DNA from: an uncultured bacterium | Lineage (GTDB): Bacteria > Verrucomicrobiota > Verrucomicrobiia > CAIQCK01 | Reading direction: 5' to 3' | Length of the DNA: 64,000 nucleotides | NCBI GenBank assembly: GCA_903870275.1 | Contig: CAIQCK010000103.1 | Location: 3,819 to 67,818 of the forward strand | In this document: in pieces, positions 1,444-53,230 of the stretch | Layout of the letters: every line of letters starts with the position of its first letter | Position numbering within the stretch: position 1 is the stretch's first letter | Program-made: the position numbers and the translations under genes | The notes under the pieces: model-generated | What the model was told of the DNA's origin: nothing | The model's database searches: none | The model's input: the letters and a program-made list of their open reading frames with translations, nothing else

Positions 1444-3777
1444 CTATTTGCGAACCGAAATCAGCGCAGGTGGCACCAGGTTTTTCAGCCCGATCAGCGA
1501 GAAAACGTAGAGCGCGGCGGCGATCACCAGCAGCCATTGGTAGCCAACCACCAGCGAGAGGTATTCGAGCAGTCCGCCCAGCACCGCGCCCGCAATGTTC
1601 GCGCCGAACGCCAGTTCGGGCGACTTCGAGTTCCGGAACGAGCAGGCGAAGATGACGCCGGCGAAAAGAATCGGCAGACACATGACCACCGCGGACTTGG
1701 CCACTCGCAGCGCGAAGGTGTCCGCCAGAAGCCAGTCGAGTGGGATGCAGAGGTTGACGGCAAGGGCGGCGGCGAGTCCCGCGTAGTAGGGCCACATGCG
1801 TTGCGGCCGCGCCAGCAGGACGTACAGATTCGCCGCCAGAATCATCGCGAGAATCGCCGCGAAGACGATGGAGTTGACCAGCCAGGTGGAACCGAACAAC
1901 TGCGCCGCCTGGGTCACGCTTTTTGTCTCGATCAACATAAAGCCGGCTCCGAGGAAGAAGAAGTGCGGATTGACGCCGCGCAGCGTGCGGACCGGCGCGA
2001 AGACGGCCAGCAAGCCGAGCGAGAGGCCAAGCATCAGCGCCAGCCCCCGCCAGTTGTGCGCCGGGATGCGCGGCTCGCGCAAATAGAGGAACGGCCAATC
2101 GTCCTCGGGCAGTTTCCAGGTTTGCGACTCGATCAGGCTGGCCGATTTGAGGCGCACCGCCTCGCCCTCCGGCGCCGGTCTGCCTGCCAAATCGGCGGTG
2201 GTTGCCGTGAAGCCGTTGAGGGTTCGGTGGAAGTTCGGGTCCTGGTTGAAGAACAGAAAACTTCCGTGCTCGCTGAATTGTTTGCGAATCGGGCTGAGCG
2301 CATCGAGACCGCCGCCCAGCAGCATCGCCATGTGCATTCCCTCGCTCTCACTGTCGCGAATCTCGTCGCGCGGCGGCAGTGAAAGCAGCAGCGGCTCGCA
2401 ACCGAAGCTGTCGCGCATCATCCGGTGCAACCGGGCCACAATCCAGCCCTGGCGGTAGAAGTTGTAGGCGGCAAACACGCCACCGGGCTTCAAGTGCCGC
2501 GCGACGTCCGCGAACGCCTGCCGGGTGAACAGGAAATTTTCCAACCGGATGCTGGAAAAGCTGGAGTGCAACGTCAGCGAGTCCACGAGCGCATAGACGA
2601 TCAGGTCGTATTTCCGGTCGGTCGTCCGCAGGAAGGAGCGGCCGTCGTCAATAATCAACCGCACGCGCGGGTCGTCGTAAGGCCGGTTTGGGTGATGCCG
2701 CCGGCCAAGCCGCGCAATGGCCGGATCAATCTCCACCGCGTCAATGTGCTCCGCCCCTTGCGCGAGTCCGTGGGCCACGTCGTTGCCCGACCCGGCGCCG
2801 ATCACCAGCACGTCTCGAATCGGCGGCAATCCGGCGTCACGCCTCAGCAGATACGGCAACGCGTAGGCCGTCGCCGCCTTGGTGCGGTCCACCATGCGCT
2901 GGTGCGACAAATCATTAACCGAGATGTCCTGCGTCTCCGGCGCGTAACGGATGGAATAATAAGGCGACCAGTGAAACACACACACCGTCCCGCGCCAGCC
3001 CGTCACGCCGATGGCCACCAGCACAACGGCCAGCAGCGCCGTGTTCGAGACGGTGAGCCGCCCCGACGCCCGCAGAAAATAAATCACGCACGCCATGCCG
3101 ACGGCGAACCAGGCCACGGGCGGCAGTTCGCAATACGCCATCGCCCCAAACGCCACGATGCCCGCCAGGCTGCCCGCGATGTTGATGGTGTAGGATTGGA
3201 TGCGATTCTCGATCGCGGCGAGCTTGTTTCCCAAAATCTGGCCGAGCGCCACGAACCACAACGCAATCAGCGTGAAAAAAACGCCCATCAGCAACTCGAC
3301 CGGGATGACCAGTTTCGCCGTCGCCGCTCCCGCGAGTTCGGTGCCGAAGTAAACGAGTTGCGGGCTGCGCTGGTTGCCGACATCCACGCCCGCCAGCCAC
3401 GCGCTGCCCACGGCTGCATAGACCGCCAGCGCCGCCGCGCAGGTCACGCCCATCAGCGTCGGCAGATATGGCAGCACTTTCCACCGGCCGTCGCACGCCA
3501 GACAGCCGACCGACATCCCGACGAACGCCGCCAGCAGCACCGTGTTGGTGAAGAACGTCAGCGAAAAAACGTAGGCGGGAAACCACCGGATCGCGGCCAG
3601 TTCCAAAAACAGGATGGCGAAGCTGATCAGAAACAAATCGAACTTCGGGCGCGCCGCCGCCGGCGCCGGCGATGGCCGTCCCCGCGCCGCGCGCTGGGCC
3701 GCCAGCCACGCCCCCAAGCCGATCATCGCACCGCCCACCAGCGCAAAACACCAAAACGCGTCGCTGTCAAAATCCAT
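1444..3777 (-). CDS. Polytopic membrane protein with spermidine-synthase-like (polyamine aminopropyltransferase family) methyltransferase-fold domain
   Basis: 777 aa. Many transmembrane helices at the N-terminus, then a central domain with VLVIGAGSGNDVAHGL ... DAVEIDP ... DLIV..D (a class-I SAM-binding fold typical of SpeE-like proteins), then further C-terminal transmembrane helices. Confidence 0.7.
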   Translation of the reverse strand: MDFDSDAFWCFALVGGAMIGLGAWLAAQRAARGRPSPAPAAARPKFDLFLISFAILFLELAAIRWFPAYVFSLTFFTNTVLLAAFVGMSVGCLACDGRWKVLPYLPTLMGVTCAAALAVYAAVGSAWLAGVDVGNQRSPQLVYFGTELAGAATAKLVIPVELLMGVFFTLIALWFVALGQILGNKLAAIENRIQSYTINIAGSLAGIVAFGAMAYCELPPVAWFAVGMACVIYFLRASGRLTVSNTALLAVVLVAIGVTGWRGTVCVFHWSPYYSIRYAPETQDISVNDLSHQRMVDRTKAATAYALPYLLRRDAGLPPIRDVLVIGAGSGNDVAHGLAQGAEHIDAVEIDPAIARLGRRHHPNRPYDDPRVRLIIDDGRSFLRTTDRKYDLIVYALVDSLTLHSSFSSIRLENFLFTRQAFADVARHLKPGGVFAAYNFYRQGWIVARLHRMMRDSFGCEPLLLSLPPRDEIRDSESEGMHMAMLLGGGLDALSPIRKQFSEHGSFLFFNQDPNFHRTLNGFTATTADLAGRPAPEGEAVRLKSASLIESQTWKLPEDDWPFLYLREPRIPAHNWRGLALMLGLSLGLLAVFAPVRTLRGVNPHFFFLGAGFMLIETKSVTQAAQLFGSTWLVNSIVFAAILAMILAANLYVLLARPQRMWPYYAGLAAALAVNLCIPLDWLLADTFALRVAKSAVVMCLPILFAGVIFACSFRNSKSPELAFGANIAGAVLGGLLEYLSLVVGYQWLLVIAAALYVFSLIGLKNLVPPALISVRK

Positions 3778-3844
3778 TCTGAACCTCTAGCAGGCTGCCG
3801 TGCCGATTGCGAATCGAAATCGCCGGTGATACTCTCCCGACGCT

Positions 3845-4375
3845 ATGGAGATTTTCGCCATCGGCCACTCGACCCAACCGCTGGAGGATTTCGTGGCGCT
3901 GCTCAAGGCGCATGGGATCGAAACCCTCGCCGACATTCGCACGGTGCCCAAGTCGCGCTACAACCCGCAGTTCAACCAGGACCGGCTCGCCCTCGAGTTG
4001 CCGCGCGTCGGCATCCGCTACGTTCACCTCAAGAACCTCGGCGGCCTGCGCCACGCCCGGCCCGACTCGCAAAACCTCGGCTGGGAGAACCCGGGCTTCC
4101 GCGGCTACGCCGACTACATGCAGACGGAGCCGTTTGCCGCGGGGTTGAACGAACTCATCGAGATGGGCGCGCAAAGCCGGACCTCCATCATGTGCGCCGA
4201 GGGCAACCCGGCGCGCTGCCATCGCAATCTGCTGGCGGACGCGCTCACCGTGCGCGGCGTGACCGTGCTGCACATCTCCAGCCCCAAAAGCGCCCATCCC
4301 CACAAGCTCACGCCGTTTGCCTGCGTCGAAGGCACGCGCGTGACCTATCCGGGTTCGCAACCCAATCTGCTCTGA
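3845..4375 (+). CDS. DUF488 family protein
   Basis: 176 aa, MEIFAIGHSTQPLEDFVALLKAHGIETLADIRTVPKSRYNPQFN... This is the characteristic DUF488 (MTH938-like) N-terminal motif. It is divergent from the upstream operon. Confidence 0.7.
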   Translation: MEIFAIGHSTQPLEDFVALLKAHGIETLADIRTVPKSRYNPQFNQDRLALELPRVGIRYVHLKNLGGLRHARPDSQNLGWENPGFRGYADYMQTEPFAAGLNELIEMGAQSRTSIMCAEGNPARCHRNLLADALTVRGVTVLHISSPKSAHPHKLTPFACVEGTRVTYPGSQPNLL

Positions 4376-4393
4376 CTTCGTCCATGTGTTTTT

Positions 4394-4490
4394 TAGTCGC
4401 CGACGTGTAGCCACCGACGCGTAGCCGCCGACGTGAGGAGGCGGAAAGGTCGTGACTGAAAAACATTCGCCTCCTTACGTCGGCGGCTAC
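4394..4490. repeat. Three tandem 14-bp repeats (TAGYCRCCGACGYG) running into a 23-bp-stem palindrome (GTAGCCGCCGACGTGAGGAGGCG ... CGCCTCCTTACGTCGGCGGCTAC, about 24-nt loop); dispersed-repeat family 1
   Basis: Direct repeats at 4394-4407, 4408-4421 and 4422-4435. Hairpin arms at 4421-4443 and 4468-4490, which are reverse complements apart from one G:U-compatible position. The same 24-mer arm recurs at 27010-27033. Confidence 0.55.
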
Positions 4491-4574
4491 GGTTCGTCCT
4501 CGTCTCGTGCTACGCGTGAAAAAACGGGGCCAGTCAAAAATCCGTGTTCCATCCGTGTTCCATCCGTGGCTAAT

Positions 4575-7142
4575 ATGCCGCCAGTGACAACGACACCTGA
4601 TCCCAGCCTGACGCCCATGATGCAGCAGTATCGCCGCATCAAGCGGGAAATCCCCGCCGACGCGCTGCTCTTGTTCCGGCTGGGCGATTTTTACGAGATG
4701 TTTTTCGACGACGCAAAGTCCGGCGCGCAGACGCTCAACCTCACCCTCACCCACCGCAACCACGTCCCGATGTGCGGCATCCCGCATCACGCCGCCGAGG
4801 GCTACATCAGCCGCCTCCTGCGCGCGGGCCGCAAGGTCGCCATCTGCGACCAGATGGAGGAGCCGCGCCCCGGCCAGCTCGTGAAACGCGAGATTTCCCA
4901 AATCCTCAGTCCCGGCGCGCACTTCGACGGCCGGATGCTCGACGCCTCCCGCAACAACTACCTCGCCGCGCTCAGCACCGACGGCAAACGCTTCGGCTTC
5001 GCCCTCGTGGACCTGACCACCGGCGACTTCAGGCTGACGGAGCTGGACTCCGCCGAATTGCTCGCGCACGAACTGACGCGCACGCGGCCCGCGGAGGTCG
5101 TCGCGCCGGCGGCCAAGGTCGAGGAGTTGTCGAAGCTGCTGACCGATTCCCGCGTGATGATCACCGGCCACGAGGACTGGGTGTTCGAAAACCAGACGGC
5201 GTTCTTCACGCTGCGCGACCATTTCAAGACGCAATCGCTCGACGGCTTCGGCTGCGCGGGGATGACGCTCGGCATCGGCGCGGGCGGCGCGGCGCTCTAC
5301 TATCTCCAGAACGTCCTCCGCCGAAACGTCAGCCACATCCGCCGCCTGCAAGTGTATCAAACCGCTGAGTTCCTGGTGCTCGACTCGATCTCGCAGCGGA
5401 ACCTCGAACTGGTCGAGCCGCTCCGCCCCGACGCGCCAAAGAACTCCACGCTCTTCGCCGCGCTCAACCGCACCGCCACAGCGATGGGCGCGCGGCTGTT
5501 GCGTGAGTGGATCACGCATCCGTTGCGCAACGCCGAGGCCATCCGCGCGCGGCAAAAGGTGGTCTTCGAGTTCCACGACATGACCGACGTGCTCGCGGAC
5601 TTTCGCGACCAGCTCAGCCTCGTGCGCGACCTGGAGCGAACGCTCGCCCGGCTCACCGCCGGCAGCGGCAACGCTCGCGACCTGCTCGGCCTGAAGGAAT
5701 CGCTCGCCGCCCTGCCCCTCTTGAAGAGCATCGTCGAGCCGCTCGCCTCGCCGCTGGCGCTGACGTTGCGCGGCTCCATCATCGAACTGCCCGACACGTG
5801 CGACCTTGTCCAACGCGCCATCACCGACGAGCCGCCGTTTACGCTCAGCGACGGCGGCGTCATCCGCGAAGGCTTCAGCCCGGAGCTGGACGAAATCCGC
5901 CGCGCGTCCAAGGAGGGCAAGGAGTGGATCGCCAAGCTCCAGCAGGACGAGATCGAGCGCACCGGCATTTCGTCGCTGAAGGTCCGCTACAACTCCGTCT
6001 TCGGCTACTTCATCGAGGTCACCAAGTCCAACCTCGCCAAGGTTCCCGACAACTACACCCGCAAACAGACCGTCGCCACCGGCGAGCGGTTCATCACGCC
6101 GGAGTTGAAGGAGGTCGAGGGCAAAATCCTCGGCGCGGACGAGCGCGCGGCGAAGCTGGAGGTGGAGTTGTTCCATCAGGTCCGCGCGAAGGTGCTGGAG
6201 CAGACCGCCGCCATCCAACAGACCGCCTCGGCCGTCGCCCACCTCGACGTGCTGGCCGGCTTCGCCGAACTGGCGCGGCACCAGAACTACCATTGTCCGG
6301 AGGTCAACGAGGAGGCGCGCATCGAGATCCGCGACGGCCGCCATCCGGTCGTCGAGCAGCTCATGACCGAAGAGCGGTTCGTGCCCAACGACACCGTCAT
6401 GAACGGCTCCGAGGCGCGCGTGCTGGTCATCACCGGCCCGAACATGGCCGGCAAGAGCACCTACATCCGGCAGGTGGCGCTCTTGGTGCTCATGGCGCAG
6501 ATCGGCTCGTGGATTCCCGCTGCCAAGGCCACCGTCGGCATCGTGGACCGCATCTTCACCCGCGTCGGCGCCAGCGACGACCTCGTGCGCGGCCAGAGCA
6601 CGTTCATGGTGGAGATGAACGAGACCGCCAACATCCTCAACAACGCCACCGCCAAGAGCCTCGTCATCCTCGACGAGATCGGCCGCGGCACCAGCACGTT
6701 CGACGGCCTCTCCATCGCGTGGTCGGTCGCCGAGCACCTGCACAACGAGGTCAAGGCCAAGACGCTCTTCGCCACGCACTATCACGAGCTGACCGAACTG
6801 GCCCGCACCTGTTCCGCCGTCAAGAACTACAACGTCGCCGTCCGCGAGTGGAGCGACCAGATCATCTTCATCCGCAAGATCGTCGAGGGCGGCACCGACA
6901 AGAGCTACGGCATCCACGTCGCCCGCCTCGCCGGCCTCCCCCGCCCCGTCATCGAGCGCGCCAAGGAAATCCTCCGCAACCTCGAGGAGAGCGAACTGAC
7001 CCCCGAAGGCCAGCCCAAGATCGCCCAGCACGAGCACGGCCGGGGGAAAGCCGGAACGCGAAAGGCGAAAGGCGGAACCAAGCCCGCCAAAGTCAGCGAG
7101 CCGCCCCCGCAGATGTTTTTGTTCGGGGATAAGGTGAAATGA
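4575..7142 (+). CDS. mutS: DNA mismatch repair protein MutS
   Basis: N-terminal MutS mismatch-binding motif (MMQQYRRIKREIPADALLLFRLGDFYEMFFDDA), Walker A (GPNMAGKSTYIRQ), DEIGRGTSTFDG, and TLFATHYHELT. The start was set at the ATG at 4575 (MPPVTT...), since the track ORF extends upstream through the palindromic repeat. Confidence 0.95.
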   Translation: MPPVTTTPDPSLTPMMQQYRRIKREIPADALLLFRLGDFYEMFFDDAKSGAQTLNLTLTHRNHVPMCGIPHHAAEGYISRLLRAGRKVAICDQMEEPRPGQLVKREISQILSPGAHFDGRMLDASRNNYLAALSTDGKRFGFALVDLTTGDFRLTELDSAELLAHELTRTRPAEVVAPAAKVEELSKLLTDSRVMITGHEDWVFENQTAFFTLRDHFKTQSLDGFGCAGMTLGIGAGGAALYYLQNVLRRNVSHIRRLQVYQTAEFLVLDSISQRNLELVEPLRPDAPKNSTLFAALNRTATAMGARLLREWITHPLRNAEAIRARQKVVFEFHDMTDVLADFRDQLSLVRDLERTLARLTAGSGNARDLLGLKESLAALPLLKSIVEPLASPLALTLRGSIIELPDTCDLVQRAITDEPPFTLSDGGVIREGFSPELDEIRRASKEGKEWIAKLQQDEIERTGISSLKVRYNSVFGYFIEVTKSNLAKVPDNYTRKQTVATGERFITPELKEVEGKILGADERAAKLEVELFHQVRAKVLEQTAAIQQTASAVAHLDVLAGFAELARHQNYHCPEVNEEARIEIRDGRHPVVEQLMTEERFVPNDTVMNGSEARVLVITGPNMAGKSTYIRQVALLVLMAQIGSWIPAAKATVGIVDRIFTRVGASDDLVRGQSTFMVEMNETANILNNATAKSLVILDEIGRGTSTFDGLSIAWSVAEHLHNEVKAKTLFATHYHELTELARTCSAVKNYNVAVREWSDQIIFIRKIVEGGTDKSYGIHVARLAGLPRPVIERAKEILRNLEESELTPEGQPKIAQHEHGRGKAGTRKAKGGTKPAKVSEPPPQMFLFGDKVK

Positions 7143-8236
7143 ATGCCGTAGGCAAGATTGGAATGTTCTGCCTTCTCTTGGCGGCAGTGGTTGTTTCTTT
7201 CCTTACGGGCTGTGCAATTGCGCGAGTGCCATATGACGTGACGGTGAAGTATGCAGAGGTTCGTGGTAACATGATTAAGGAGGAGTTCCACAAACAAGTC
7301 CCCTCAGAAATCAAGACATTTGAAGACCTAACCAAGCTGCTGGACGCCTACGACAAGTTCAAAGGCGTAAAGCAGATGAGCTTCGAAGAAAGCGTCTGGA
7401 CCGATGAGGCTCGCGAGGCCATTCGCGGTTTGGAATTCAATCATAACACTTCAGCAGTTTTCTTGGTCGAGATAGTTAGGCGAGAGTTCGATTGCGAAGA
7501 CTTTTGCAAATTCGCCGCGGAACACAGAAACGCAACTGTGGAGTTACTTGATCGCCTTGCAGATCACCCCAGAGAATCTGTTTGGCTTCAAGTCACCAAG
7601 AATTCGAACGTGACCACAGAACTGTTGCGAAAGATATATTTCAACCCAAAGTCTAATTTCTATGTTCGCGGTTACGCAGCTCACAATCCAAAGGCTCCGC
7701 CCGAAATCGTCACCGCTTTTCTTCAGGAAGCGATGTCGAACACGGATCCAAGAAAGAGATGCTGGGCTAGCGGTTTTCCACGCGCGTCGTTATCCTTAGG
7801 AGATTATTCAAAATTGTCGAAAGACCTCGACAAACGCGTTAGAGATGCGCTGGCTAGAAATCCATCAGCGCCAATCTCCATGCTGGAGTCACTTTCGGAA
7901 GATGCTGACCCATATGTGAGCCGGCACGCCCGCGAAACAATTCAAAAGGTGAAGACAAATCACTTCACAAAGAAGGCTCAAGATTTTGTTTGCAGCAACA
8001 AAACGGTTCTTAATCTGATCGGCTCGGTGCCAGAATTTCACCAATTCGATACCAGTTCCTCTAAAGAGCCGTGCCCCGACGGCGGATTTGCGGGACACAC
8101 CTACTTCAGAGTAGAGACACCATCAGCGCACAAAGGCTGTTTGATCAAGATTAGTTGGCGATCCAAAGATTGCGAAGACGACTTCCAACCATTGGAAATT
8201 CAGGCAAACAGCAAAGTGATTTGGAAGACGCAATAA
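7139..8236 (+). CDS. Lipoprotein with LRV-type (leucine-rich repeat variant / HEAT-like) repeats; compositionally atypical (low GC)
   Basis: Signal peptide with lipobox (MFCLLLAAVVVSFLTGC). C-terminal repeats of the form NPxAPPEIVTAFL...D...VR..A.NP.AP. GC is visibly lower (about 48%) than the flanking genes (about 65%). The ATG overlaps the mutS stop as ATGA. Confidence 0.6.
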   Translation: MNAVGKIGMFCLLLAAVVVSFLTGCAIARVPYDVTVKYAEVRGNMIKEEFHKQVPSEIKTFEDLTKLLDAYDKFKGVKQMSFEESVWTDEAREAIRGLEFNHNTSAVFLVEIVRREFDCEDFCKFAAEHRNATVELLDRLADHPRESVWLQVTKNSNVTTELLRKIYFNPKSNFYVRGYAAHNPKAPPEIVTAFLQEAMSNTDPRKRCWASGFPRASLSLGDYSKLSKDLDKRVRDALARNPSAPISMLESLSEDADPYVSRHARETIQKVKTNHFTKKAQDFVCSNKTVLNLIGSVPEFHQFDTSSSKEPCPDGGFAGHTYFRVETPSAHKGCLIKISWRSKDCEDDFQPLEIQANSKVIWKTQ

Positions 8237-8259
8237 TCTTCCACAAAATTCCTCACCCC

Positions 8260-9405
8260 ATGCTTATGAAACGAATCACCGCCACCACGGTCGCGCTTTG
8301 GTTCCTGACCTCCGTGCTGTCAGCCTCGGACGGGACGGCGCCGACCGATGTGCCGCAGATTCCGCTGTGCATGATCGGCGACAGCATTACCTGGGCGGGC
8401 GAAGGCGATTACTGGCGGCAGGATCTCCTGGAGCAGCTTCCCGCGCTGGCTTTTGTCGGCACGCACACGGCCAAGCTCGGCTACAGCCACGCGGGCGAAG
8501 GCGGCAACGGCACGCGGGCCGTGCTCGCGCGCCTCGGCGATATCCCGGATTGTCCATACTACTCGCTGCACATCGGCACCAACGACAACAACCTCAAGGA
8601 CGCGTCCGCCATCGAGTCGCACGCCGCCGCCACCGCGGACCGCATCGTCGCCATCGTGCAGGGGCTGTTGAAGAAGCCGTCGGTGCGAAAGGTGTTCCTG
8701 TGCAGCATTCTCCCCTGCCAGACGGACAACCCGTTGCGGGACCGGACCAACGCCGCGACCAACGTGGTGTTGCGACAGAAGATGGCGGCGTTTCCCAAGG
8801 ACAAGGTGGTTTGGGTGGAACTGGAGAAGCCCGTCCGCGCCATCGAGAACTGGGGTCCGATGATCAAGCTGCACCCGACGCAGGAAGGATACAAGGTGAT
8901 GGGGAAGCTGCTGGCCGATGCCATCGCCGCGGCCCTCGGCGTGCAGGATCGCGCCGCCGTGCCGAAACCGCGGCCCGGTTGCGGCGTGCGGGTGGAGAAT
9001 CTTTGGGACGGCGGCGGCAACGGTCGCACGCGTGCGCCGATCATCGCCGGCTGGTATACGGCGTCGTTCGACGTGGTGCGCGCGGCCGGGCCGAAGGCCA
9101 CGGTGACGATCCGCGGCGAACTTCCGCCCGCAAAGGACCCCAAAACCGTGCAGCACGCATTCAACCAGTCATTCCCCGTGGCCTCCGGGGACGCCGGCAA
9201 GCGCGTCACGGTCAACTTCTTCACGGAACACGAGGGCTACAAATACACGCGCTCGCCGTTGGCGTTGACGGCCTCCGGATGCGAGATCACGAAAATCCTG
9301 GTCGAGAAGCGGCGGCCATCCGGCAAAGCCTCCACCTACGGCCAAGGCTCGTATGTGGACACCGCGACCGCACCCCTGCCCGGCGAACTTGTGGAACGAC
9401 CGTAA
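8260..9405 (+). CDS. Secreted SGNH/GDSL-family hydrolase with C-terminal extra domain
   Basis: Signal peptide (MLMKRITATTVALWFLTSVLSA). SGNH blocks: GDSIT (block I), GEGGNGT (block II), GTNDN (block III), LHPTQEGY (block V, Asp/His). An extension of about 130 aa follows. The start was moved to the internal ATG at 8260. Confidence 0.75.
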   Translation: MLMKRITATTVALWFLTSVLSASDGTAPTDVPQIPLCMIGDSITWAGEGDYWRQDLLEQLPALAFVGTHTAKLGYSHAGEGGNGTRAVLARLGDIPDCPYYSLHIGTNDNNLKDASAIESHAAATADRIVAIVQGLLKKPSVRKVFLCSILPCQTDNPLRDRTNAATNVVLRQKMAAFPKDKVVWVELEKPVRAIENWGPMIKLHPTQEGYKVMGKLLADAIAAALGVQDRAAVPKPRPGCGVRVENLWDGGGNGRTRAPIIAGWYTASFDVVRAAGPKATVTIRGELPPAKDPKTVQHAFNQSFPVASGDAGKRVTVNFFTEHEGYKYTRSPLALTASGCEITKILVEKRRPSGKASTYGQGSYVDTATAPLPGELVERP

Positions 9406-9503
9406 ACGCTGGCGACAGATTTACCCGGCGCTGATAGAAATCTCTGCAAAAGCCGTTGTCCACACTGTAGCGGCGGTCCCATGAAAATAATAGCAAGTTT
9501 CTC

Positions 9504-9532
9504 TTGACATATAGAGAAAGTATCTATATGTT
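9504..9532 (+). promoter_or_regulatory. Sigma-70-like promoter candidate (TTGACA-N17-TATGTT) in an AT-rich patch
   Basis: TTGACA at 9504-9509, a 17-nt spacer, TATGTT at 9527-9532. It sits in the only AT-rich stretch of a 900-bp non-coding region. No protein gene follows for about 770 bp. Confidence 0.25.
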
Positions 9533-10015
9533 CTTCCCGCCATGAATTGGACCGGCACGCGGGCGCAGACCCTCCGGCCGGGAGCCGGCGGCGGCAACCC
9601 GGAGGCCGGCCCGAGCCATCCGCGGATGGTTGCGGGCACCGGCCTCGTGCCGCCATCCAAGACCCGGCCCGGCCCCACAAGCCGGATGGTGACGGGCCAG
9701 ACGCCGCCGGCATGGACCACGGACGATCTGGCGGCCACGCCGCCTCTTGATGGCCCCAAGCGCCAGAACCGCCCCCAACGCGGACGGCTGCGGCTGGTGG
9801 CGGGACGATCATCCTCCCCATCCATCATCTGGGTCAATTTTTCAAAACGAACCCATATGATGGCCCCGGTCCAACCTGGAAAACATCGTTTTCCCGAAGA
9901 AAACCCGGGGTTCGATGCCCGAGGGCCGGGGAATTCAAAAGGTGTTTTTACGAAACGAAGCCAAATGAAAGGAGGCTCATGTCAGGGAATGATACGGTTC
10001 GGAGTTGGCCTTGCC

Positions 10016-10162
10016 CGGTAGCGGCGGTAGCGGCAAAGCGTCTCCAACCCGCTCGCTCGGTCAAGGTTCGGTCAAAGCCAGTCAAAGTGAAAACGCCCAA
10101 AAATAATTTGGCCTAATCCGGGTTGATCCGGCTGCATCCGACCTGATCCGACTCAATCCAAC
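10016..10162. repeat. Three sets of phased short tandem repeats (putative cis-regulatory array)
   Basis: GGTAGCGGC x2 (10018-10035); GTCAARG x3 at 10060, 10071 and 10081; RATCCR x5 at exactly 10-bp spacing (10115, 10125, 10135, 10145, 10155). The array lies 140 bp upstream of the ATG at 10302. Confidence 0.45.
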
Positions 10163-10301
10163 AGAAACCGACCCAGTGAAACCCATGAAACATTGCAAAC
10201 GCACGATGGCTGTGGCGGCGGAACAAAACCAAATCATGCCACCGAAGGGCAAACATTTCACCGAGACTTTCTGGCTGGTTGCCATTAGGATGGCGCCCGA
10301 C

Positions 10302-10817
10302 ATGAAACGGCTTCTCATTCTGCTCCTGTTCGCCGCTGCCGTGTCCGTGGGCGCGGTGGAGGTGGATGTCACGCTCAAGAACGGCAAGAAGGTGACGGGC
10401 GGCGTGCTGGTTGATAACGACCGCGAGATCATCATCCTCGTGCAGGCGTCCAACGGCGTTTACCGGCAGACGATCAAGAAAGCCGACGTTGCTGGGGTCA
10501 AAGAGCACGCCGCGCCGAAAGCCGGGCCGCCCGGCCCCGCGGACGTGGCACGGCTGCAAAAGAGCATCAAGGCCGCCGAGGAGGACGTGCGCCGGCGCGA
10601 GGCGGAGATCCCCATTGCCCAGAAGGCGCTGGATGATTTCTACGGCAGCCACCCCGACGCCAAGGCGGCAACGCTGGACAGGGAGCGGAAGTTGCGTGCG
10701 CGACTGGCGACGACTCGAACGCAAGTGGATATCGCCCGCTCCAAACTCAACGCACTCACCTTGGACCTCGGAGCGATGAGCCGCCAGTTGACCGAGCCGC
10801 CGCCGCAGGCGAAGTGA
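10302..10817 (+). CDS. Hypothetical secreted protein (coiled-coil C-terminus)
   Basis: Starting from MKRLLILLLFAAAVSVGA (signal peptide), 171 aa. There is a lysine-rich beta region and then a helical segment, and no recognisable domain. The track ORF starts earlier at 10176, but the signal peptide argues for 10302. Confidence 0.5.
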   Translation: MKRLLILLLFAAAVSVGAVEVDVTLKNGKKVTGGVLVDNDREIIILVQASNGVYRQTIKKADVAGVKEHAAPKAGPPGPADVARLQKSIKAAEEDVRRREAEIPIAQKALDDFYGSHPDAKAATLDRERKLRARLATTRTQVDIARSKLNALTLDLGAMSRQLTEPPPQAK

Positions 10818-10839: not shown

Positions 10840-11583
10840 TCAACCCTGCCGCCCTGCGGGAACTGTTCCCTTCAGAAGAACGCTGGTTCCCAGCGGCAAA
10901 GGAAGCCCCTTGTCCACCTGCAACAACGCGCGAAGGACGGCACTGGTGAACGGGTGGGTTTTGCTGTCGCCCGAATCGGCAAGCGGGTAGGCACGGCGCA
11001 AAATTCTGCTGTAGAGCAGGCAAACCGGGATCAGGGTGAATCCAAAATACCGCACTCGATCAACCACGACGGCACGGCCGACCGTTTGGCGCAACGAGCG
11101 GATGGAGTAGCGCCGGTAGTGCCCGAGGGATTCATCGTGAAAACCGAACAGCCATTGGCCCGCCGGCACGGTGAGCATCAAGAGGCCGCCGGGGCGCGCG
11201 CACGCGATCAATTTCTCCACGGCTTTCACATCGTCCCGGATATGCTCGATCACGTCGGTGGCGATCACGCAATCGTAGGGCTGGCTGACCTGAAGGTCTT
11301 CGATGGAGCAAACCTTGAACGTGCAACGGGGAATCGCCAGTGCCCCCGCCGTCTGCCTTGCCAGCTCGATATACTCGCGCGAAGGATCAACGCCCATGAC
11401 ATCGTGACCGGCTTCGGCCAGCAGGAACGACAGATCCCCCGAACCGCATCCCGCGTTCAAAATCCTCAGCGGCTTCGGCTCTGCGCCCAGCCATTCCAGG
11501 AGGATGCGATACTTCGTGTGCGCATACAAATCCCGCGAGCGCGCCAGCAAGTCTTGATACTGATAAGCGTTAAAGCCGTTCAT
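10840..11583 (-). CDS. Class I SAM-dependent methyltransferase (type 11/12 family)
   Basis: ILNAGCGSGDLS (motif I), DCVIATDVIEH and ARPGGLLMLTVP motifs. 247 aa. Confidence 0.8.
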   Translation of the reverse strand: MNGFNAYQYQDLLARSRDLYAHTKYRILLEWLGAEPKPLRILNAGCGSGDLSFLLAEAGHDVMGVDPSREYIELARQTAGALAIPRCTFKVCSIEDLQVSQPYDCVIATDVIEHIRDDVKAVEKLIACARPGGLLMLTVPAGQWLFGFHDESLGHYRRYSIRSLRQTVGRAVVVDRVRYFGFTLIPVCLLYSRILRRAYPLADSGDSKTHPFTSAVLRALLQVDKGLPLPLGTSVLLKGTVPAGRQG

Positions 11584-24581: not shown

Positions 24582-25829
<1,248 letters not shown>

Positions 25830-25958
25830 GCGCCTTCCCGGGAGCGCGGGCATCCTGCCCCCCGACGTTCACGCGCAGGCGCAGCCAGTTAGAAGGCGGT
25901 TGATGGAACCGTCTCTGTTGCGACCACTTTTTTTATCCATACTTTATTCGAACGCAGC

Positions 25959-26792
25959 ATGCAATTTACCATCGTCACACCCAGCTTCAGGAATTCTTCC
26001 TGGCTTAAGCTGTGCATCGCCTCGGTGGCCGACCAGGGTGTGGAGGCGGAACACATCGTCCAGGACTCCTGCTCCGATGACGGCACGCAGGACTGGCTGC
26101 CGCACGACTCCCGCGTCATCTCCGTCATCGAAAAGGACACGGGCATGTATGACGCGGTCAACCGCGGATTCCGCCGCGCACGGGGGGAATTGCTGGCCTA
26201 TCTCAACTGCGACGAACAATACCTTCCCGACGCTTTGCGCAAGGTAAGCCGTTTCTTTGACCAGCATCCCGGCGTGGACGTGATTTTCGGCGACACCGTG
26301 ATCGTCGGCCCCCAGGGCGAATACATCTGCGAGCGCCGCGCGCTCCTGCCCCATCGCCTCCATACCCTCATCAGCATGAACCTGAGTTTCCTCACGGCCG
26401 CCACCTTCATGCGGCGGCGGGTTTTTCATGAACTCGGACTCCACTTCGATCCAAGCCTGCGTGACGTGGGCGACGCCGAATGGACACTCCGTTTGCTCAA
26501 GGCTGGAGTGCGCATGGCGACGATGAAAGAATTGACCAGCGCGTATACGGAGACAGGAACCAACATGAGCCTCGGCCCGAATATGGCTCGCGAACGGGCT
26601 GTCTTCGCCCAAACCGCCCCGCTGTGGGCGCGCACACTGGCCCCGTTCCTCGTGGCCTATTTCCGGTCCCGCCGATGGCGCGCGGGGCATTACCGCTGCC
26701 AACCGCATTCGTATGTCATCTACACCAAGGACGGCCCCAACGAGCGAAAGCTCTTCCAAGCGAACCAGCCGACCTTCCGATGGTCGCGGTGA
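25959..26792 (+). CDS. Family 2 glycosyltransferase
   Basis: TIVTPSFRNSSWLKLCIASV, DSCSDDGT and NCDEQY (DxD-type) motifs. 277 aa. Confidence 0.75.
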   Translation: MQFTIVTPSFRNSSWLKLCIASVADQGVEAEHIVQDSCSDDGTQDWLPHDSRVISVIEKDTGMYDAVNRGFRRARGELLAYLNCDEQYLPDALRKVSRFFDQHPGVDVIFGDTVIVGPQGEYICERRALLPHRLHTLISMNLSFLTAATFMRRRVFHELGLHFDPSLRDVGDAEWTLRLLKAGVRMATMKELTSAYTETGTNMSLGPNMARERAVFAQTAPLWARTLAPFLVAYFRSRRWRAGHYRCQPHSYVIYTKDGPNERKLFQANQPTFRWSR

Positions 26793-26844
26793 CCCGTCAG
26801 AAATCACGACGAAGCACGCAACCCTTGATATGACCGCCCTTCTT

Positions 26845-27130
26845 CGCTGTAGCGGCGGTCTCCAACCACCGAGCTGTTCATTATCAACCTCAACTACACG
26901 CCCAACACCGCGCGCGAGTCGAAAGTGGACGCCATCCTCAACAACGCCCCCGGCTTTGGCGGCCACAACTGTTCCCTCGTCGCCAAGCGGTTCGTGTAGG
27001 CAGACGCCTGTAGCCGCCGACGTAAGGAGGCGGTCATGTTCGCATCCTCGATCTTTCCGCTGTAGCGGCGGTCTCCGACCGCCGAAATGTTCATCATCAA
27101 CAACCGGCGGTCAGAGACCGCCGCTACAGC
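26845..27130. repeat. Dispersed-repeat family 2 (CGCTGTAGCGGCGGTCTCC...) x2 plus a 25-bp-stem hairpin, and one copy of family-1 arm (27010-27033)
   Basis: Copy A at 26845-26888. Copy A' at 27058-27085, with its inverted partner at 27106-27130 (20-nt loop). A family-1 24-mer at 27010-27033 is followed by an ATG and a 9-codon ORF. The CTGTAGCGGCGGTC core also occurs at 9465-9478. Confidence 0.55.
26878..27000 (+). pseudogene. Diverged duplicate of the last ~115 bp of fabF (3'-end remnant)
   Basis: 26884-27000 aligns with fabF 25716-25830 with about 7 substitutions, including the stop (TAA versus TAG). It encodes ...[37 protein letters not shown], and no upstream fabF body is present. Confidence 0.65.
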
Positions 27131-27199
27131 CACCGCTTGTCCGCGTGACTTCCCCCGCCCCTTCTGGTAGAAACGCCGCCAAGGAGAGCGGCAGAGACG

Positions 27200-29605
27200 A
27201 TGAAGAAGTGGCTGAAGATTCTGTCTGTGGTATTGCTCGGGGCTCTAATGGCAACGGGCGCGTTCTTCGTCGCCAAACCGGCAAGGATGCCGGTGTTCCA
27301 ATCAACTTCTGTTTTCCGGCATTATCACACTTTGTGCGTGCCTTACCGCCGACCACCGGCGCTTGATGCGGCCGAAGCAACCCCCATATTGGAACACGCC
27401 ATCCAGCGAATCCGCCAGCGCCTCTTTAAAGCCCGCAATCGTTTGCCGGCACTGTCGGAAATAGACAAAGCAACAATCAAGGGATGTGACTTCACATATC
27501 GGAAAGGAGACGTCTCCCGCGATGAGACAGGCAAGCGGGTTTTTGATCCGCCGGATTCCTGCTACTTGTCCCTGCATGCCGAATATCCGTTCTGGGAATC
27601 AATGATGCTGTCAGTTGTTCCAAAGGAGTATTCAGTGTATGGGGATTGTTTTGCTGTCTACGCATCGGTAACTACGGAAACCGGTCAGTCCGAGATTTAC
27701 AAAATAATTCAGCAGGAAATGGACCGTGCAGTTGAAGAACTCCAAACGGCGGTCCGGTCCAAAATGCTCAAGGCAGGGGAAGGAATCTTTCTGGCCGTCA
27801 GAACCAGCGACGCCGCAAAGGTGGAGCAGTTCCTGGCCCGCAAACCCGAGTTGGCCAATGCCAAAGACACCCATGGGCTTGCGCCGCTTCATTGGGCACA
27901 AGACACGCGCGTTGCGGAGTTGTTGCTGGCGAAGAAAGCCGATGTTACCGCCAAAGACAACTTCGGTCTCACGCCCCTGCACTGGGCGGTCTATAATGGC
28001 CGCTTCGAACTCGTAAAACTGCTCGTCGCCAACAGGGCCGACATCAACGCCAAAACCACCGATGGCTGGACTCCCACGGACCTCGCCGAGGAACTGTACG
28101 GTGAAGCCGGGAAAGCAACGTCTTTTCTTCTCCAGCACGGCGGAATTCCTGGCCTGCCCGACGCAAGATTGATGGTAGTTCTTAGATGGCTCGACAAAAC
28201 GCACTTGAAGCGAGCGCTGCAAATGAAACCTAATTTCGTTGCCCTGAAGGACGAACAGGGGCGCACCGCACTGCATCACGCAGTTTTATCTCGCAACAGA
28301 GAAGCGGTGGAACTGCTTTTGAACGCCGGCGCGGATCCCAACATCAAGGACAATTATGGAAACACGGCAATATTGACGCCAAATGTCATGGTTGATCCAA
28401 AACTGCTGGAACTGCTGCTGACTCACAAGGCCGACCTCAACGTCATGGACGAGAAAGGCCGGACGCCTCTCGACCGTGCACTACTGGATCATGCATCAGA
28501 AATCGTCGCTCTTCTTCGCAAATACGGCGCCCAGAGAGGAGTAGAACCCCTTCGCAATACCATAATGCAACAAGACATGGGCGAACTGAAAGTATTGCTG
28601 TCATCCCAAACGGTTGACGTCAATAAGAAGGACCGTTATGGCAGTTATCCCGTTCATCTTGCGGTGTTTTACAAAAACATCGAAATGCTGAAGCTGTTGC
28701 TGGATCACAACGCTGATCCCAATGTCAGGGACAAAGAAGGTTATACATTGTTCCAAGTGTTCCTCGGATCCAAAGAAATGATGGCTTTGCTGATCGCCCA
28801 CGGAGCCGATGTTAACGCCAGAGACGGGTGGGGTGCCACGGCGCTTCATCATGCAGTCGGACTTATCAACAACAAGGAAGCCGTAGAGTTCCTCATTGCC
28901 AACAAGGCCGACGTCAACGCTGAAGACAAGAATGGCTGCACACCTTTGGATCGCGCATTTCGGCACAGCTCTAACCCGCATCACAGAATTGTGATTGATC
29001 TTCTTCGAGAGCACGGTGGCATATTCAAGAAATACCAGAAAGAAGCCAGCATCATGGAGTCACACCTCAAGAGACGGCAGTACATAATGGCTGGGATGCC
29101 TCTCTTTCCATACGGTTTAACAAACATAATTATTCGCCCGTTGCCGATAGTCCGCAAAAAAACATCGCTTACTCCTATTCAGGATATGGAGTTGCGGAAC
29201 ATGCCGGATGTGAAGGCCGCCAGCGAAGCACTGTCGGAAACTGGCAAAAAGTCTGCCAACGTGAGAAGAGCGACAATGTCCAAACTGGGATATCACATTG
29301 AGTCTCGCACTAATGGCACGTCGAATGTCGGGACAAGCGTATTCCGTGGGTGGTTTACTGCCGATGGGGAGCGGGTGACGACCAAGCAATTGACGGAATT
29401 CGACGATTTGCCGGACGTGAAGGCCAGTCGTGAAGCCACTGCACAAGCTGGCATGCTATACTGGGCAGTGAGGAGAGCAGCAACGACCACGCTTGTTAAT
29501 CAGACAGGTTATGGCACCAATCGCGCATCATCGGCGATTCAAGCACCGCCGGCGGGATCGGGCACGAATGGAGCGGTGCAGGTGAAGGGGAATGTGATGC
29601 GATGA
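27200..29605 (+). CDS. Secreted ankyrin-repeat protein (about 12 ANK repeats) with C-terminal tandem-repeat tail; low GC
   Basis: AAGGAGAG Shine-Dalgarno. Signal peptide MKKWLKILSVVLLGALMATGAFFVA. Repeated ANK consensus (G.TPLH.A...G....V.LLL..GAD.N.KD). Two C-terminal repeats, MPDVKAASEAL... and LPDVKASREAT.... GC is visibly below the genome background. Confidence 0.85.
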   Translation: MKKWLKILSVVLLGALMATGAFFVAKPARMPVFQSTSVFRHYHTLCVPYRRPPALDAAEATPILEHAIQRIRQRLFKARNRLPALSEIDKATIKGCDFTYRKGDVSRDETGKRVFDPPDSCYLSLHAEYPFWESMMLSVVPKEYSVYGDCFAVYASVTTETGQSEIYKIIQQEMDRAVEELQTAVRSKMLKAGEGIFLAVRTSDAAKVEQFLARKPELANAKDTHGLAPLHWAQDTRVAELLLAKKADVTAKDNFGLTPLHWAVYNGRFELVKLLVANRADINAKTTDGWTPTDLAEELYGEAGKATSFLLQHGGIPGLPDARLMVVLRWLDKTHLKRALQMKPNFVALKDEQGRTALHHAVLSRNREAVELLLNAGADPNIKDNYGNTAILTPNVMVDPKLLELLLTHKADLNVMDEKGRTPLDRALLDHASEIVALLRKYGAQRGVEPLRNTIMQQDMGELKVLLSSQTVDVNKKDRYGSYPVHLAVFYKNIEMLKLLLDHNADPNVRDKEGYTLFQVFLGSKEMMALLIAHGADVNARDGWGATALHHAVGLINNKEAVEFLIANKADVNAEDKNGCTPLDRAFRHSSNPHHRIVIDLLREHGGIFKKYQKEASIMESHLKRRQYIMAGMPLFPYGLTNIIIRPLPIVRKKTSLTPIQDMELRNMPDVKAASEALSETGKKSANVRRATMSKLGYHIESRTNGTSNVGTSVFRGWFTADGERVTTKQLTEFDDLPDVKASREATAQAGMLYWAVRRAATTTLVNQTGYGTNRASSAIQAPPAGSGTNGAVQVKGNVMR

Positions 29606-31897: not shown

Positions 31898-31972
31898 TGG
31901 TGGGCGCTGTTGGGATTGAACCAACGACCCCTTGCGTGTGAAGCAAGTGCTCTCCCACTGAGCTAAGCGCCC
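31898..31972 (-). tRNA. tRNA-Val (anticodon CAC)
   Basis: The reverse complement folds as a cloverleaf: 7-bp acceptor stem (GGGCGCT / AGCGCCC), D-arm GCTC/GAGC, anticodon stem CTTGC/GCAAG with loop TTCACAC, T-arm GTTGG-TTCAATC-CCAAC. Discriminator A and CCA are genome-encoded. 75 nt. Confidence 0.85.
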
Positions 31973-33266: not shown

Positions 33267-36200
33267 TTAGTCCTTGACGGGCAAATCCAGATGAAACCGC
33301 GTGTATAGCCCTGTTTGTGTCTCAAAGTGCAGTCCCCCTTGATGGTCTTTCGCGATGCCGTGGCTGATGGACAGTCCCAGACCCGTTCCTCCTTTTCCGA
33401 CCTTGGTGGTGAAGAAGGGGTCGAAAACACGGTCGCGGATTTCCCGAGGCACGCCGACCCCCTGGTCTTCAACGGTCAATCGAATCCAACGGCTTCCTTC
33501 CTTCTCCAGCGACCGGGCGGTGACGCGAATCGTCTTGTTTGCATCATGTTTCGGATACTTCTCGTTCAGCGCGTCGCGGGCGTTCGTCAGCAAGTTCAGA
33601 AACACCTGCTGGATTTGCTGGCTGTGGCACTTCACCTTGGGCAGGTCGGGAGGAACGTCCACGGTCAAGGCGATCTGGTCGTGCCGCATCACGGTCTGAA
33701 TGAGCCGGAGGACGGAGTTGACGATGTCGCTCATGTGCGTCCACTCGTGCTGCCGTTTGTCCTGCCGCGAAAAGGAGAGCAGGTTTTGGACGATCTGGGA
33801 CACGCGATCGGTTTCCTTGATGATCTCCGCCGCGTATTCCCGCAGGGGATTGTCCGCCGCCAGCCGGTCCACCATCAACTGCGCGTAGTTCATGATGCCG
33901 TTGATGGGATTGTTGATCTCGTGGGCGACGCCGCCCGCCAGCGTGCCGAGGGACTCCAGCTTTTGCGATTGGCGCAGTTGGGTTTCAAGCTCGGCTTCGC
34001 GCGTCACATCGAGCTTGAGGGCGATGTAGTTGACAATCCGGCCTGCTGCGTCCCGCACGGGGGAGATGGTGGCGTCCTCCTGGTAAAGCGTGCCATCCTT
34101 CTTTTTGTTGATCATGCGGCCATGCCAGACCTCGCCACGCGTGAGTGTCTCCCACATGTGCTGGTAGAACGCGGTGTCGTGTTTGCCGCTTTTGAGAACG
34201 CGCGGGTTCTGGCCAAGAGCCTCGTCGCGCGTGTAGCCGGTGATTTTCTCGAACGCCGGGTTGACATAGAGGATTGTGCCATGGGCATCGGTGATGACAA
34301 TGGTCTCGGCGGCTTGTTCCATGGCCGTGACCAGCCGCAGACGCTCCTCCTCCGCCCGCTTGCGCTCGGTGACGTCTTCCACAAATCCTTCGTAGAAAAG
34401 CACCCTGCCTTGCGAGCCCCGCGTGACGCGCGCGCTGGTGGAAACCCACATCGTGCTGCCGTCCTTGCGGTAGGCGCGGTTTTCAAATCCCCGCACTTCG
34501 CCCCGCTCTTCCAGTTGCCGTTGAAACTCCCGCCGGTATTCAGGGTGCAGGTAAAACTGGCGACCGATGTCCTGAACGGACGCCAGACACTCGGCGGGCG
34601 ACGCGTAGCCGTGCATGGCCGCGAACGCCGGGTTGACCGTGATCAACTTGCCGTCGGGCGTGCTCTGAAAAATGCCTTCCGCCGCGTTCTCAAAAATGCC
34701 GCGGTATTTCTCCTCCGCCTGGCGCAGTGCATCCTCCGTCCGCCGGCGTTCGGAAATGTCCCGGCTGACCCCCACGATGCCGACAAAGGCGTTCGTCTCG
34801 TCGAACATCCCGCTGTAGCCGACCTCGCACCATGCCGTCCAGCCATCCTTGCAGAGGTATTTGAGTTCGAGCGTTTCGCGCACGCGTTTGCCGGTCCGCA
34901 TCTGGGGGATCGTTTCGTCCAACTTCCCGCGAAGCGCCGTGGCGGAAGCCGCCACCAGCACTTGTTCCAAACCGCGCGACAGGACTTCCTCCGCCGTGTA
35001 GCCCAGCAACCGTTGAACCGAGGGACTCACGTAATTCAGCCGGCCCAACGTGTCCAGCGTCCAGATCACGTCGCTGGCGTTGTCGGCCAGCAACCGGAGG
35101 CGCTGTTCGTTCTCGCGCAACGTCTGTTCCATGAGCTTGCGCTCGCTGATGTCGCTCACCGTGCCCATCAGCCGGACCCGTTCGCCCTTTTCGTTGCGCC
35201 CGACGCGCCCCCGGACCGCAATCCAGCGCGGCGGCCGGCCCGGCCGGGCAATCCGGCACTCAAAACTGAGATGATCGGTGAACAGCGCCTGCGCAAAGCA
35301 ACGCTTGACCGGCTCAAGGTCTTCGGGCACGACATGCTTCAGGAGGATTTCGTAATTCCATTGGGATGGCGGGATGTCGTAGCCGAAAATTTGGTCGTGC
35401 CGCAACGTCCGCCAACTGGTGTCGCCGACCAAGTCCAACTCCCATGCACCCATCTGGCCTGCGTCCAGCGCGAGACGGAGCCGTTCCTCGCCTTGCTTCA
35501 ACTTCTCTTCAGCTTGTTTGCGCTCCGTCACGTCGTCGTAAACGGCCACCAACTCGCCCGACGGCAGCTTATAGACGTAATTTTCCCGCCACGAAACACT
35601 GCGACCCTGCTGGCGCAACGCACCGGAGTGCCGCTCGGGCACACCGGTTTTCCAAACGCGCCGGAACACGTCCAGCAACCCCATTTGCTGGACATTCGGA
35701 AACGTCTTGGCGATGCCTTTCCCAAGCAGTGCCTCCTTTTTCACGTTTTCGATCTGCTCGGCTGCCGTGTTAAAATCCTTGAAAATAAAATCCTCGCCGC
35801 TTCCCCGGACTTCGTAAACCGCGACGCCGCTTTTGATTCCGTTGAACAACTCCCGGTATCGTTTTTCGTTCTCGGCCAGTTGTTGCTCCGTTTGCGCGAG
35901 CTGCTTGCGATTCTGCGCCTCCTGCAAGGTCCGCCGCACGGCCGGCCCCAAACGGTTCAGCCTGTGCTTGAGCACGTAATCGGTCGCCCCTTGGTGCAGC
36001 GCGTCAATGGCGGTTTCCTCGCCAAGGTTGGCGGAAACGAAGATGAAGGGCACTTCGGGGCGTTTCTTTCGCGCAAGCTTCAGGGCGGACAGGCCGTCGT
36101 AGGACGGCAGGGAGTAATCGGCCAGAATCAGGTCCAGAGCCGGGTTCCGCAACCCGGCGGCAAAATCCGCCTCCGTCCAGACGCGCCGCACGCTGCACCG

Positions 36201-36287
36201 GATGCCTTCGCGCTTCAGTTCGCGCATCACCAGTTCGGCGTCGGCGGGGCGGTCTTCGAGGTTGAGTATCTGGAGTTCCTCGCTCAC
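33267..36287 (-). CDS. REC-PAS(x5)-histidine kinase
   Basis: Receiver domain ([25 protein letters not shown] ... LILADYSLP). Repeated PAS blocks with the diagnostic x-DIT-E-R-K ends. HisKA ([17 protein letters not shown]) plus HATPase_c (DQGVGVP..., GGTGLGLSI). The start is proposed as GTG 36287, which overlaps the upstream stop as GTGA. The track ATG at 36356 would overlap the upstream gene by 72 nt. Confidence 0.8.
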
Positions 36288-53222: not shown

Positions 53223-53230
53223 GGGATGCC

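Follow-up and report, generated by a model that had tools for sequence, protein, structure and literature searches.

The stretch of DNA analysed here (the window) comprises 64,000 nucleotides (nt) of contig CAIQCK010000103.1 from an uncultivated member of the Verrucomicrobiota, and it carries two families of short, GC-rich palindromic repeats. All of the copies are intergenic: they lie between a DUF488 gene and mutS, between a GDSL lipase gene and the next open reading frame (ORF), and between a GT2 glycosyltransferase gene and an ankyrin-repeat gene, and the neighbors of every copy are co-directional genes. Family 1 is represented by GTAGCCGCCGACGTRAGGAGGCGG, which is found exactly at 4421-4444 and 27010-27033 on the + strand and with one mismatch at 4467-4490 on the - strand; family 2 is represented by the 14-mer CTGTAGCGGCGGTC, with exact copies beginning at 9465, 26847 and 27060 on the + strand and one at 27116-27129 on the - strand. 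An earlier note on this DNA had placed both families here and judged them too frequent for chance, and this is confirmed: no family-1 match was found in 100 dinucleotide-preserving shuffles, and the family-2 14-mer with up to two mismatches has five matches where 0.7 are expected. Both families are very probably GTAG-type repetitive extragenic palindromes (REPs) which form REPIN- or BIME-like dimers and would be mobilized by a RAYT protein encoded elsewhere in the genome.

At the first site (Table 1) the tandem triple of family 1 described in the earlier note is real, with heads at 4393 and 4407 before the full unit at 4421. The accompanying hairpin, which had been given a 23-bp stem at 4394-4490, is also present, with inverted arms at 4415-4443 and 4468-4496 that are 90% complementary; when folded as DNA, 4415-4496 forms 24 consecutive pairs (including one G-T) with an energy of -35.3 kcal/mol (z = -5.6). 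The lone family-1 unit folds weakly by nearest-neighbor rules (-5.4 kcal/mol) because of the G.A pairs in its stem. The inverted arms of the complete family-2 dimer, 27059-27084 and 27105-27130, are 96% complementary and also fold at -35.3 kcal/mol (z = -11.3), and a single family-2 unit reaches -10.3 kcal/mol (z = -3.65). Units of these repeats often form super-hairpins of 70-100 nt by pairing with their heads outward. The inner palindrome that had been noticed in family 2 exists, but its loop is 3 nt (CGGCGGTC-TCC-GACCGCCG) rather than 2 nt, and although the 14-mers at 9465 and 26847 are exact, the former is only a head with half a stem and the latter a decayed arm with a spacer that ends at 26886. 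The spacer at 26846-26886 is of the same type as that at 27059-27104. A search of the window for other families of GTAG hairpins gave none that is convincing, and no Rfam family covers the window repeats or the 9300-10400 region. The tetramer GTAG/CTAC is scarce in the window: counting both strands it occurs 192 times, whereas most of the control tetramers occur 630-750 times (AGTG and TGAG have 237-333, and GGTA is scarcer still at 136), so GTAG-headed hairpins stand out.

Table 1. Repeats, neighboring genes and rearranged DNA in the window, and the state of orthologous sites in relatives
Feature	Position	Strand	Remarks
DUF488 gene	3845-4375		
Two degenerate partial REP heads, 14 nt each, in tandem	4393-4420	+	TTAGTCGCCGACGT, GTAGCCACCGACGC; starts 4393 and 4407; followed by the full unit
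Family-1 unit, left arm of head-outward dimer	4421-4445	+	GTAG head, CCGCCGAC/GGAGGCGG stem, tandem G.A/A.G, GTGA loop
Family-1 dimer spacer, ~21 nt	4446-4466		Sequence not common to other copies
Family-1 unit, right arm	4467-4490	-	GTAA loop variant, final base A
mutS	4575-7142		
GDSL lipase gene	8155-9405		
Family-2 remnant: head and 5' half-stem, no hairpin	9465-9478	+	Within the ~9418-10285 stretch missing from L207
Second family-2 head fragment	10016-10029	+	GTAGCGGCGGT, an 11-nt direct repeat of 9467-9477
Lineage-specific insert with GT2 glycosyltransferase gene (25959-26792)	25832-26886	+	Missing from L207 and L209
Decayed family-2 left arm with related spacer AGCTGTTCATTATCA	26846-26886	+	Ends abruptly where the duplicated fabF 3' end begins
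115-nt duplicate of fabF 3' end	26887-27001	+	95% identical to 25717-25831; ends in TAG
Single family-1 unit	27010-27033	+	Missing from the orthologous site of relative L209
Family-2 head-outward dimer	27059-27130		Arms 27059-27084 (+) and 27105-27130 (-), 20-nt spacer; per arm GTAG, 8-bp CGGCGGTC/GACCGCCG stem and 3-nt loop
Ankyrin-repeat gene	27200-29605		
fabF-ankyrin gap, window			Family 1 and family 2
fabF-ankyrin gap, L209			Family-2 dimer; no family-1 unit; no GT2 gene
fabF-ankyrin gap, L207			Neither REP family
Upstream of mutS, L215			MutS 94% identical to window; diverged family-1 dimer and single arm
Upstream of mutS, L214			MutS 95% identical; no REP
Upstream of mutS, L216			MutS 88% identical; no REP

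Units of the two families share a simple construction. Family 1 has the form GTAG-CCGCCGAC-GTRA-GGAGGCGG with an eight-position stem, in which positions 6 and 7 are G.A and A.G, and family 2 the form GTAG-CGGCGGTC-TCY-GACCGCCG, also with an eight-position stem; the GTAG head is present on all units of both. At loci that encode RAYT proteins (discussed below), GTAG stands 5' of N8-GTRA-N8 hairpins of at least six pairs 83 times, as opposed to 0-4 times for control tetramers. Family-1 units at the sampled loci are arranged as 84 head-outward dimers, seven tail-outward dimers and 50 unpaired arms, with none in tandem. The 84 head-outward spacers have a median length of 21 nt and every one is different in sequence; clearly related spacers make up 10% of same-assembly pairs and only 0.1% of cross-assembly pairs. 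The dimers often join two REP variants, for example GACGTGAGGAGG and GAGGTAACGAGG. Among 125 distinct GTAG-N8-GTRA-N8 units, which were picked blind to stem pairing, 76% of the stem cells pair (51.5% in shuffles), double changes occur at all eight stem pairs, and the covariation score is 0.547, compared with 0.149 in shuffles (none of 500 reaches the observed value) and 0.07-0.12 when the register is slid. Family 2 recurs in the JACRQF and DASTLJ assemblies, and a compensatory variant of its stem, GGCGCTC/GAGCGCC, is found in another genome.

Because every family-1 unit contains AAGGAGG, with CCTCCTT on the opposite arm, the family could be a translation element, either a Shine-Dalgarno sequence for a small leader ORF or one that is masked by the anti-Shine-Dalgarno arm. 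The earlier note had pointed in this direction, and the ATG at 27036 does exist, is suitably spaced and opens a 9-codon ORF, whose stop codon is supplied by the TAG in the following GTAG head. However, an ATG stands 5-10 nt after AGGAGG in only seven of the 167 exact copies, so the arrangement at 27036 is incidental, and the ORFs in question are unrelated in length (9 to 131 codons). In addition, the GGAG of the stem becomes GTCG, GACG or GCCG in related REP variants in step with the opposite side, and so these positions act as part of the stem rather than as a ribosome site; family 1 is almost certainly not a translation signal.

Several larger arrangements of family-1-type units were seen in other genomes. 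Dimers form tandem clusters with periods of 82-99 nt in L019 (1549-1901) and L059 (31-286 and 2533-2663), which resemble BIME-like arrays; four direct copies in L019 were considered as a CRISPR-like array, and this was rejected as they are a tandem run of dimers. In L006, L016, L074, L095, L115 and L103 family-1 dimers lie within longer conserved inverted flanks, such as GCCCGGATATTTCAT...ATGAAATATCCGGGC and TTTGAACCGCTGGACC...GGTCCAGCGGTTCAAA, and these would be composite, larger palindromic elements. At L116 (6548-6781) a family-2 dimer encloses a family-1 dimer with extended flanking inverted repeats, a nested insertion which echoes the side-by-side family-1 and family-2 units at 27010-27130 of the window.

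In a scan that covered one genome for each species, at least 119 stretches from at least 56 species-level assemblies contain the exact family-1 23-mer, with at least 169 exact units; among the matches listed, up to 10 stretches come from one assembly and the assemblies are mostly labelled Verrucomicrobiota, including Opitutaceae, Pedosphaera and Udaeobacter. Some of the assemblies (e.g., L005, L016, L067 and L120) bear the unconfirmed labels Bifidobacterium, Klebsiella, Acidobacteria, Kapaibacterium or Victivallales, which could reflect mislabelled or contaminated bins. With genes called by a crude heuristic based on GC3, the share of the 111 family-1 sites located deep within called genes is 31.5%, versus 72% for random positions. 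This supports the opinion of the earlier note that these are dispersed, GC-rich, REP-like palindromes, present in many copies across the phylum and depleted inside genes, and are neither a product of chance nor a protein motif.

The gaps that hold family 1 are convergent rather than divergent in a ratio of 21:9, against a baseline of 67:67. This preference for gene 3' ends, the very stable folding of the dimers and the position of all window copies between co-directional genes are what would be expected if the hairpins were mainly host RNA-level elements (stabilizers of mRNA 3' ends, attenuators or terminators) that have spread through selection for that role, and such functions are reported for REPs of other bacteria (PMC3733652). 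On the other hand, there is no T-run 3' of the window hairpins, and the window copies were accordingly rejected as intrinsic terminators, which combine a GC-rich hairpin with a T-run; a terminator scan of 4300-4620 found none, and one of 26780-27220 gave a single weak minus-strand match (27105-27123) that is within chance. An RNA-level role also does not account for why the GTAG head is invariant, why the repeats are linked to RAYT genes or why the REPs change with RAYT lineage. It is improbable as the main explanation of the repeats, and may be a secondary, co-opted function rather than a true alternative.

The gene linked to family 1 was found by searching the ORFs at family-1 loci with E. 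coli RayT, which gave one match, in L044 (phmmer, 1.4e-10). This ORF (189 amino acids, 3255-3824) lies between family-1 dimers at 3094-3184 and 4027-4123 and matches positions 3-145 of the 146-position NCBIfam profile REP_Tyr_transpos (NF047646; E = 1.3e-17). A protein search with it returned 1074 relatives, of which the 120 listed are ~190 amino acids long, 60-99% identical to it and in many cases named RayT by JGI. In an alignment of 34 of the relatives, H69 and H71 (PDHLH), W104, Q105, Y129 and N133 are invariant and P134 is nearly so, and the profile built from them has only one PDB match, TnpA-REP (4ER8; 1.3e-09), with which the HUH, WQ and tyrosine (Y-x-x-x-NP) motifs align. Family-1 arms, accepted with up to five mismatches within 500 bp, were sought at 80 metagenomic loci encoding such relatives, and they are present upstream at 49 of 75 loci and downstream at 42 of 69; REP units are ~9 times denser within 900 bp of the RAYT gene than beyond it (0.12 per kb). 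The RAYT gene is flanked by family-1 REPs in L044, L122 and L206, and the last of these is the JACRQF genome, which holds both families and in which RAYT P0080 is flanked by family-1-type dimers. Below ~63% RAYT identity the flanking units change, in a compensatory manner within the stem, while GTAG, the stem and the GTRA loop are kept; on either side of RAYTs of 55-63% identity there are units such as GTAGGAGACGACGTGAGGAGTCTC, GTAGCAGCGGACGTGAGTCCGCTC, GTAGCCGCGCTTGTGAAAGCGCGG and GTAGCCCCCGACGTAAGTCGGGGG. The partial head duplication GTAGCCRCCGAC, which lies directly 5' of a full unit, also adjoins RAYT genes, in L044, L131 and L161. Some called RAYT proteins contain REP-derived peptide, P0108 at its N-terminus and P0076 in an internal insert (PPPYLGGY..., NPPRYLGGY...VAAEVTRR), and thus the RAYT coding region itself either includes REP units or has them read into it.

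The RAYT linkage bears as well on the idea that the repeats are DNA uptake sequences or sites of a conserved host DNA-binding protein, which the retention of the exact 23-mer in at least 56 assemblies and the commonness of inverted pairs might suggest. Known DNA uptake sequences are far shorter than the family-1 unit. The ~9-fold concentration around RAYT genes and the change of the unit with RAYT lineage do not fit such sites, and the stem covariation indicates a structural and not a sequence constraint, so this explanation is very unlikely.

A number of observations weigh against mobilization of the window copies by a RAYT. The L044 protein scores 64.1 bits against NF047646, below the equivalog cut-off of 80, and has no match in Pfam; it is therefore treated as a divergent relative and not as an equivalog. 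There is no RAYT gene in the 64-kb window or at the loci of its close relatives, and the window organism's own RAYT was not recovered; P0055, which was picked as a candidate for it because its source pattern is like that of the window FabF, was rejected because it belongs to another organism. No RAYT was found beside any family-2 copy, and family-2 arms are present at none of the 80 RAYT loci, so family 2, for which a cognate RAYT is presumed, is assigned by its anatomy and co-location only. (Family 2 is next to or around family-1 units in L116; the region between its family-2 copies was considered as a RAYT locus and rejected, as it holds an unrelated 394-amino acid ORF.) Copies for the window organism were counted within the 64 kb, where there are two family-1 sites and three main family-2 sites plus the head fragment at 10016. 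About one-third of the family-1 sites lie inside the crude gene calls, and these may be real intragenic copies or gene-calling errors. Finally, the presence of a RAYT in this organism, its binding, cleavage and transposition of these REPs and any effect of the copies on neighboring genes are inferred.

Taken with these reservations, the favored explanation is that the REPs would be non-autonomous, and that a RAYT/TnpA-REP protein (an HUH Y1 enzyme) encoded elsewhere in the genome would recognize the GTAG head and hairpin on single-stranded DNA and cleave and rejoin the REP DNA, thereby spreading and maintaining copies in intergenic DNA. The window copies would then be resident intergenic passengers, intact at 4421-4490 and 27010-27130 and decayed or cut by later rearrangement at 9465, 10016 and 26846.

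Close relatives provide a view of turnover at individual sites. The window contig has identical contigs in several metagenomes, and L001-L003 are 99.98-99.99% identical to the window and hence give no polymorphism signal; the relatives compared are L207 and L209, whose FabF proteins are each 92% identical to that of the window, and L214, L215 and L216. Orthologous sites in these relatives are empty or differently filled (Table 1, lower rows), and therefore the elements have been gained and lost. The earlier note had also thought of small mobile hairpins resembling miniature inverted-repeat transposable elements. Comparison of the 27010 family-1 insertion with L209 shows no visible target-site duplication, though the flanks have diverged, and the gene linked to family 1 is a RAYT and not a classical transposase, with no parent insertion sequence known. 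In place of the family-2 dimer of the window and L209, L207 has an AT-rich palindrome at 11315-11385 (GTTAAGAGTGAAGA...TCTTCACTC...TTAAC) that may belong to another repeat family. Just upstream of mutS, AAAATCCGTGTTCCATCCGTGTTCCATCCGTGGCTA, containing the tandem 11-mer TCCGTGTTCCA, is present in the window (4536-4572), L215 (5962-5998) and L216 (5942-5976) and absent from L214; it may be a promoter or operator.

Some of the window copies coincide with rearranged DNA. The fabF region is a chimera. Its first fabF end, with the stop TAA, is L207-like together with the sequence 3' of it, and the 115-nt duplicate, with the stop TAG and a Leu-to-Pro change, is L209-like, as is the DNA beyond it. The right edge of the GT2 insert is the incomplete family-2 dimer, which is joined to fabF within a short ACC/TCAAC microhomology. 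Acquisition of the GT2 gene through two crossovers, one homologous and the other illegitimate, and with the joint in the REP dimer spacer, would fit this, and other histories are possible. The ~870-nt stretch at 9418-10285 separates the GDSL lipase gene from the next conserved ORF and matches nothing in Pfam or Rfam. An 11-nt direct repeat within it, GTAGCGGCGGT at 9467 and 10018, brackets ~540 nt; the stretch may be a decayed REP cluster, or else an element that has inserted into a family-2 REP. Its start is AT-rich and has a promoter-like TTGACA...TATATG. The ankyrin-repeat gene 3' of fabF is of low GC content and variable in length, encoding 801 amino acids in the window, 248 in L207 (11432-12178) and 446 in L209 (11407-12747).

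A rival proposal, which follows the earlier note, is that the repeats promote recombination or mark the boundaries of horizontally acquired islands. In its favor, REP occupancy differs among close relatives at both sites compared, the incomplete family-2 dimer adjoins the fabF 3' duplicate at the right end of an insert missing from relatives, family-2 head fragments lie in the ~870-nt insert (one ~50 nt inside its left edge, others near 10016 and 10210), and families 1 and 2 stand just upstream of the ankyrin gene. Nevertheless, most copies elsewhere are in ordinary intergenic gaps of many genomes, and three sites in one window are too few for an association. The block of mutS, lipoprotein and SGNH genes that was described as flanked by the repeats is not an island, since MutS and the GDSL lipase are in the same order in L214 and L216, both of which have no REP upstream of mutS, and the 7139-8236 gene between them has no REP at either end. 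That gene is of low GC content (50%) with a weak LRV-repeat match; its slot is occupied by non-homologous genes in L215 and L216 and by two small ORFs in L214, and it appears to hold a different gene in each genome. The proposal is thus weakly supported and unlikely to describe what the repeats primarily are; their coincidence with rearranged DNA here is not a demonstrated causal role.

Elsewhere in the window, 34200-43500 and 50900-57050 are long, internally repetitive coding regions that probably encode repeat-domain proteins; the repeats have periods of several hundred nt at 34-43 kb and of 93 nt at 55.8-57.0 kb, and are degenerate at 50.9-55.4 kb. A tRNA-Val gene lies at 31898-31972.

REPs and RAYTs were reportedly the subject of work by Nunvar and colleagues in 2010. 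GTAG-tagged REPs that pair as head-outward dimers around variable spacers, are biased to intergenic DNA, occur as several families per genome and are linked to RAYTs have already been described, and Opitutus terrae, also a member of the Verrucomicrobia, is very rich in GTAG repeats (Di Nocera, De Gregorio and Rocco 2013; PMC3733652). The families described here resemble that superfamily in their terminal GTAG, 6-9 bp stem and short loop, in dimers with GTAG outside and 20-100 nt, often variable spacers, and in intergenic bias, the number of families per genome and the association with RAYT. Neither family-1 nor family-2 sequence is present in the supplementary files of that paper that were searched, and the O. 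terrae GTAG families differ in encoding other peptides and in having dimer spacers of 1-2 bp. Unlike the described GTAG REPs, family 1 closes its conserved GTRA loop with tandem G.A/A.G mismatches, and the unit is conserved letter for letter across many species. As in the REPIN-RAYT systems of Pseudomonas and Enterobacteria (Bertels and Rainey 2011; PMC3116915), an inverted REP pair forms a long hairpin, the RAYT gene is flanked by the same REPs and some spacers within a genome are related; here, however, all 84 of the sampled spacers differ and most same-genome pairs are unrelated, so there is no sign of one master dimer for each genome. The E. coli REP/BIME system with TnpA-REP (RayT; PDB 4ER8; PMC3479197, PMC8266576) has the same aligned HUH, WQ and Y-x-x-x-NP motifs, and its Y/Z heterodimers are paralleled by the two-variant dimers, but the protein linked to family 1 has low sequence identity to E. 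coli RayT (E = 1.4e-10), the REPs are unrelated save for the GTAG head, and the clade described here is known from sequence alone.

Families 1 and 2 are thus new representatives of an already described GTAG-REP/RAYT class. The letter-for-letter conservation of family 1, its GTRA/tandem-G.A grammar and the recurrent head duplications beside RAYT genes and at 4393-4420 are of some interest. A speculative extension, which we regard as rather doubtful, is that the family-1 REP and its RAYT are one ancient, largely vertical system across several Verrucomicrobiota orders, in which the 24-nt hairpin would be fixed by enzyme recognition while the spacers drift in a lineage-specific manner, and in which head duplications such as GTAGCCRCCGAC would be traces that abortive cleavage and rejoining by RAYT has left at the border of stem and loop. 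If that were so, these duplications would be a natural read-out of the still unresolved mechanism of REP dissemination.

The assignment to the GTAG-REP/RAYT class explains puzzling GC-rich palindromes in metagenome-assembled genomes of Verrucomicrobiota and helps to account for the shortness of many RAYT-bearing contigs. It also carries a warning for annotation, in that the AGGAGG of the REP is not a ribosome site and its translations PPPYVGGY and VAADVRRR are not protein motifs. The window elements are best seen as markers of intergenic turnover, one of them at an illegitimate recombination joint, and not as demonstrated agents of island formation. More generally, they add a well-populated, covarying REP-RAYT clade outside the Proteobacteria, whose hairpin grammar (GTAG, an eight-position stem and a GTRA loop) could serve studies of recognition.

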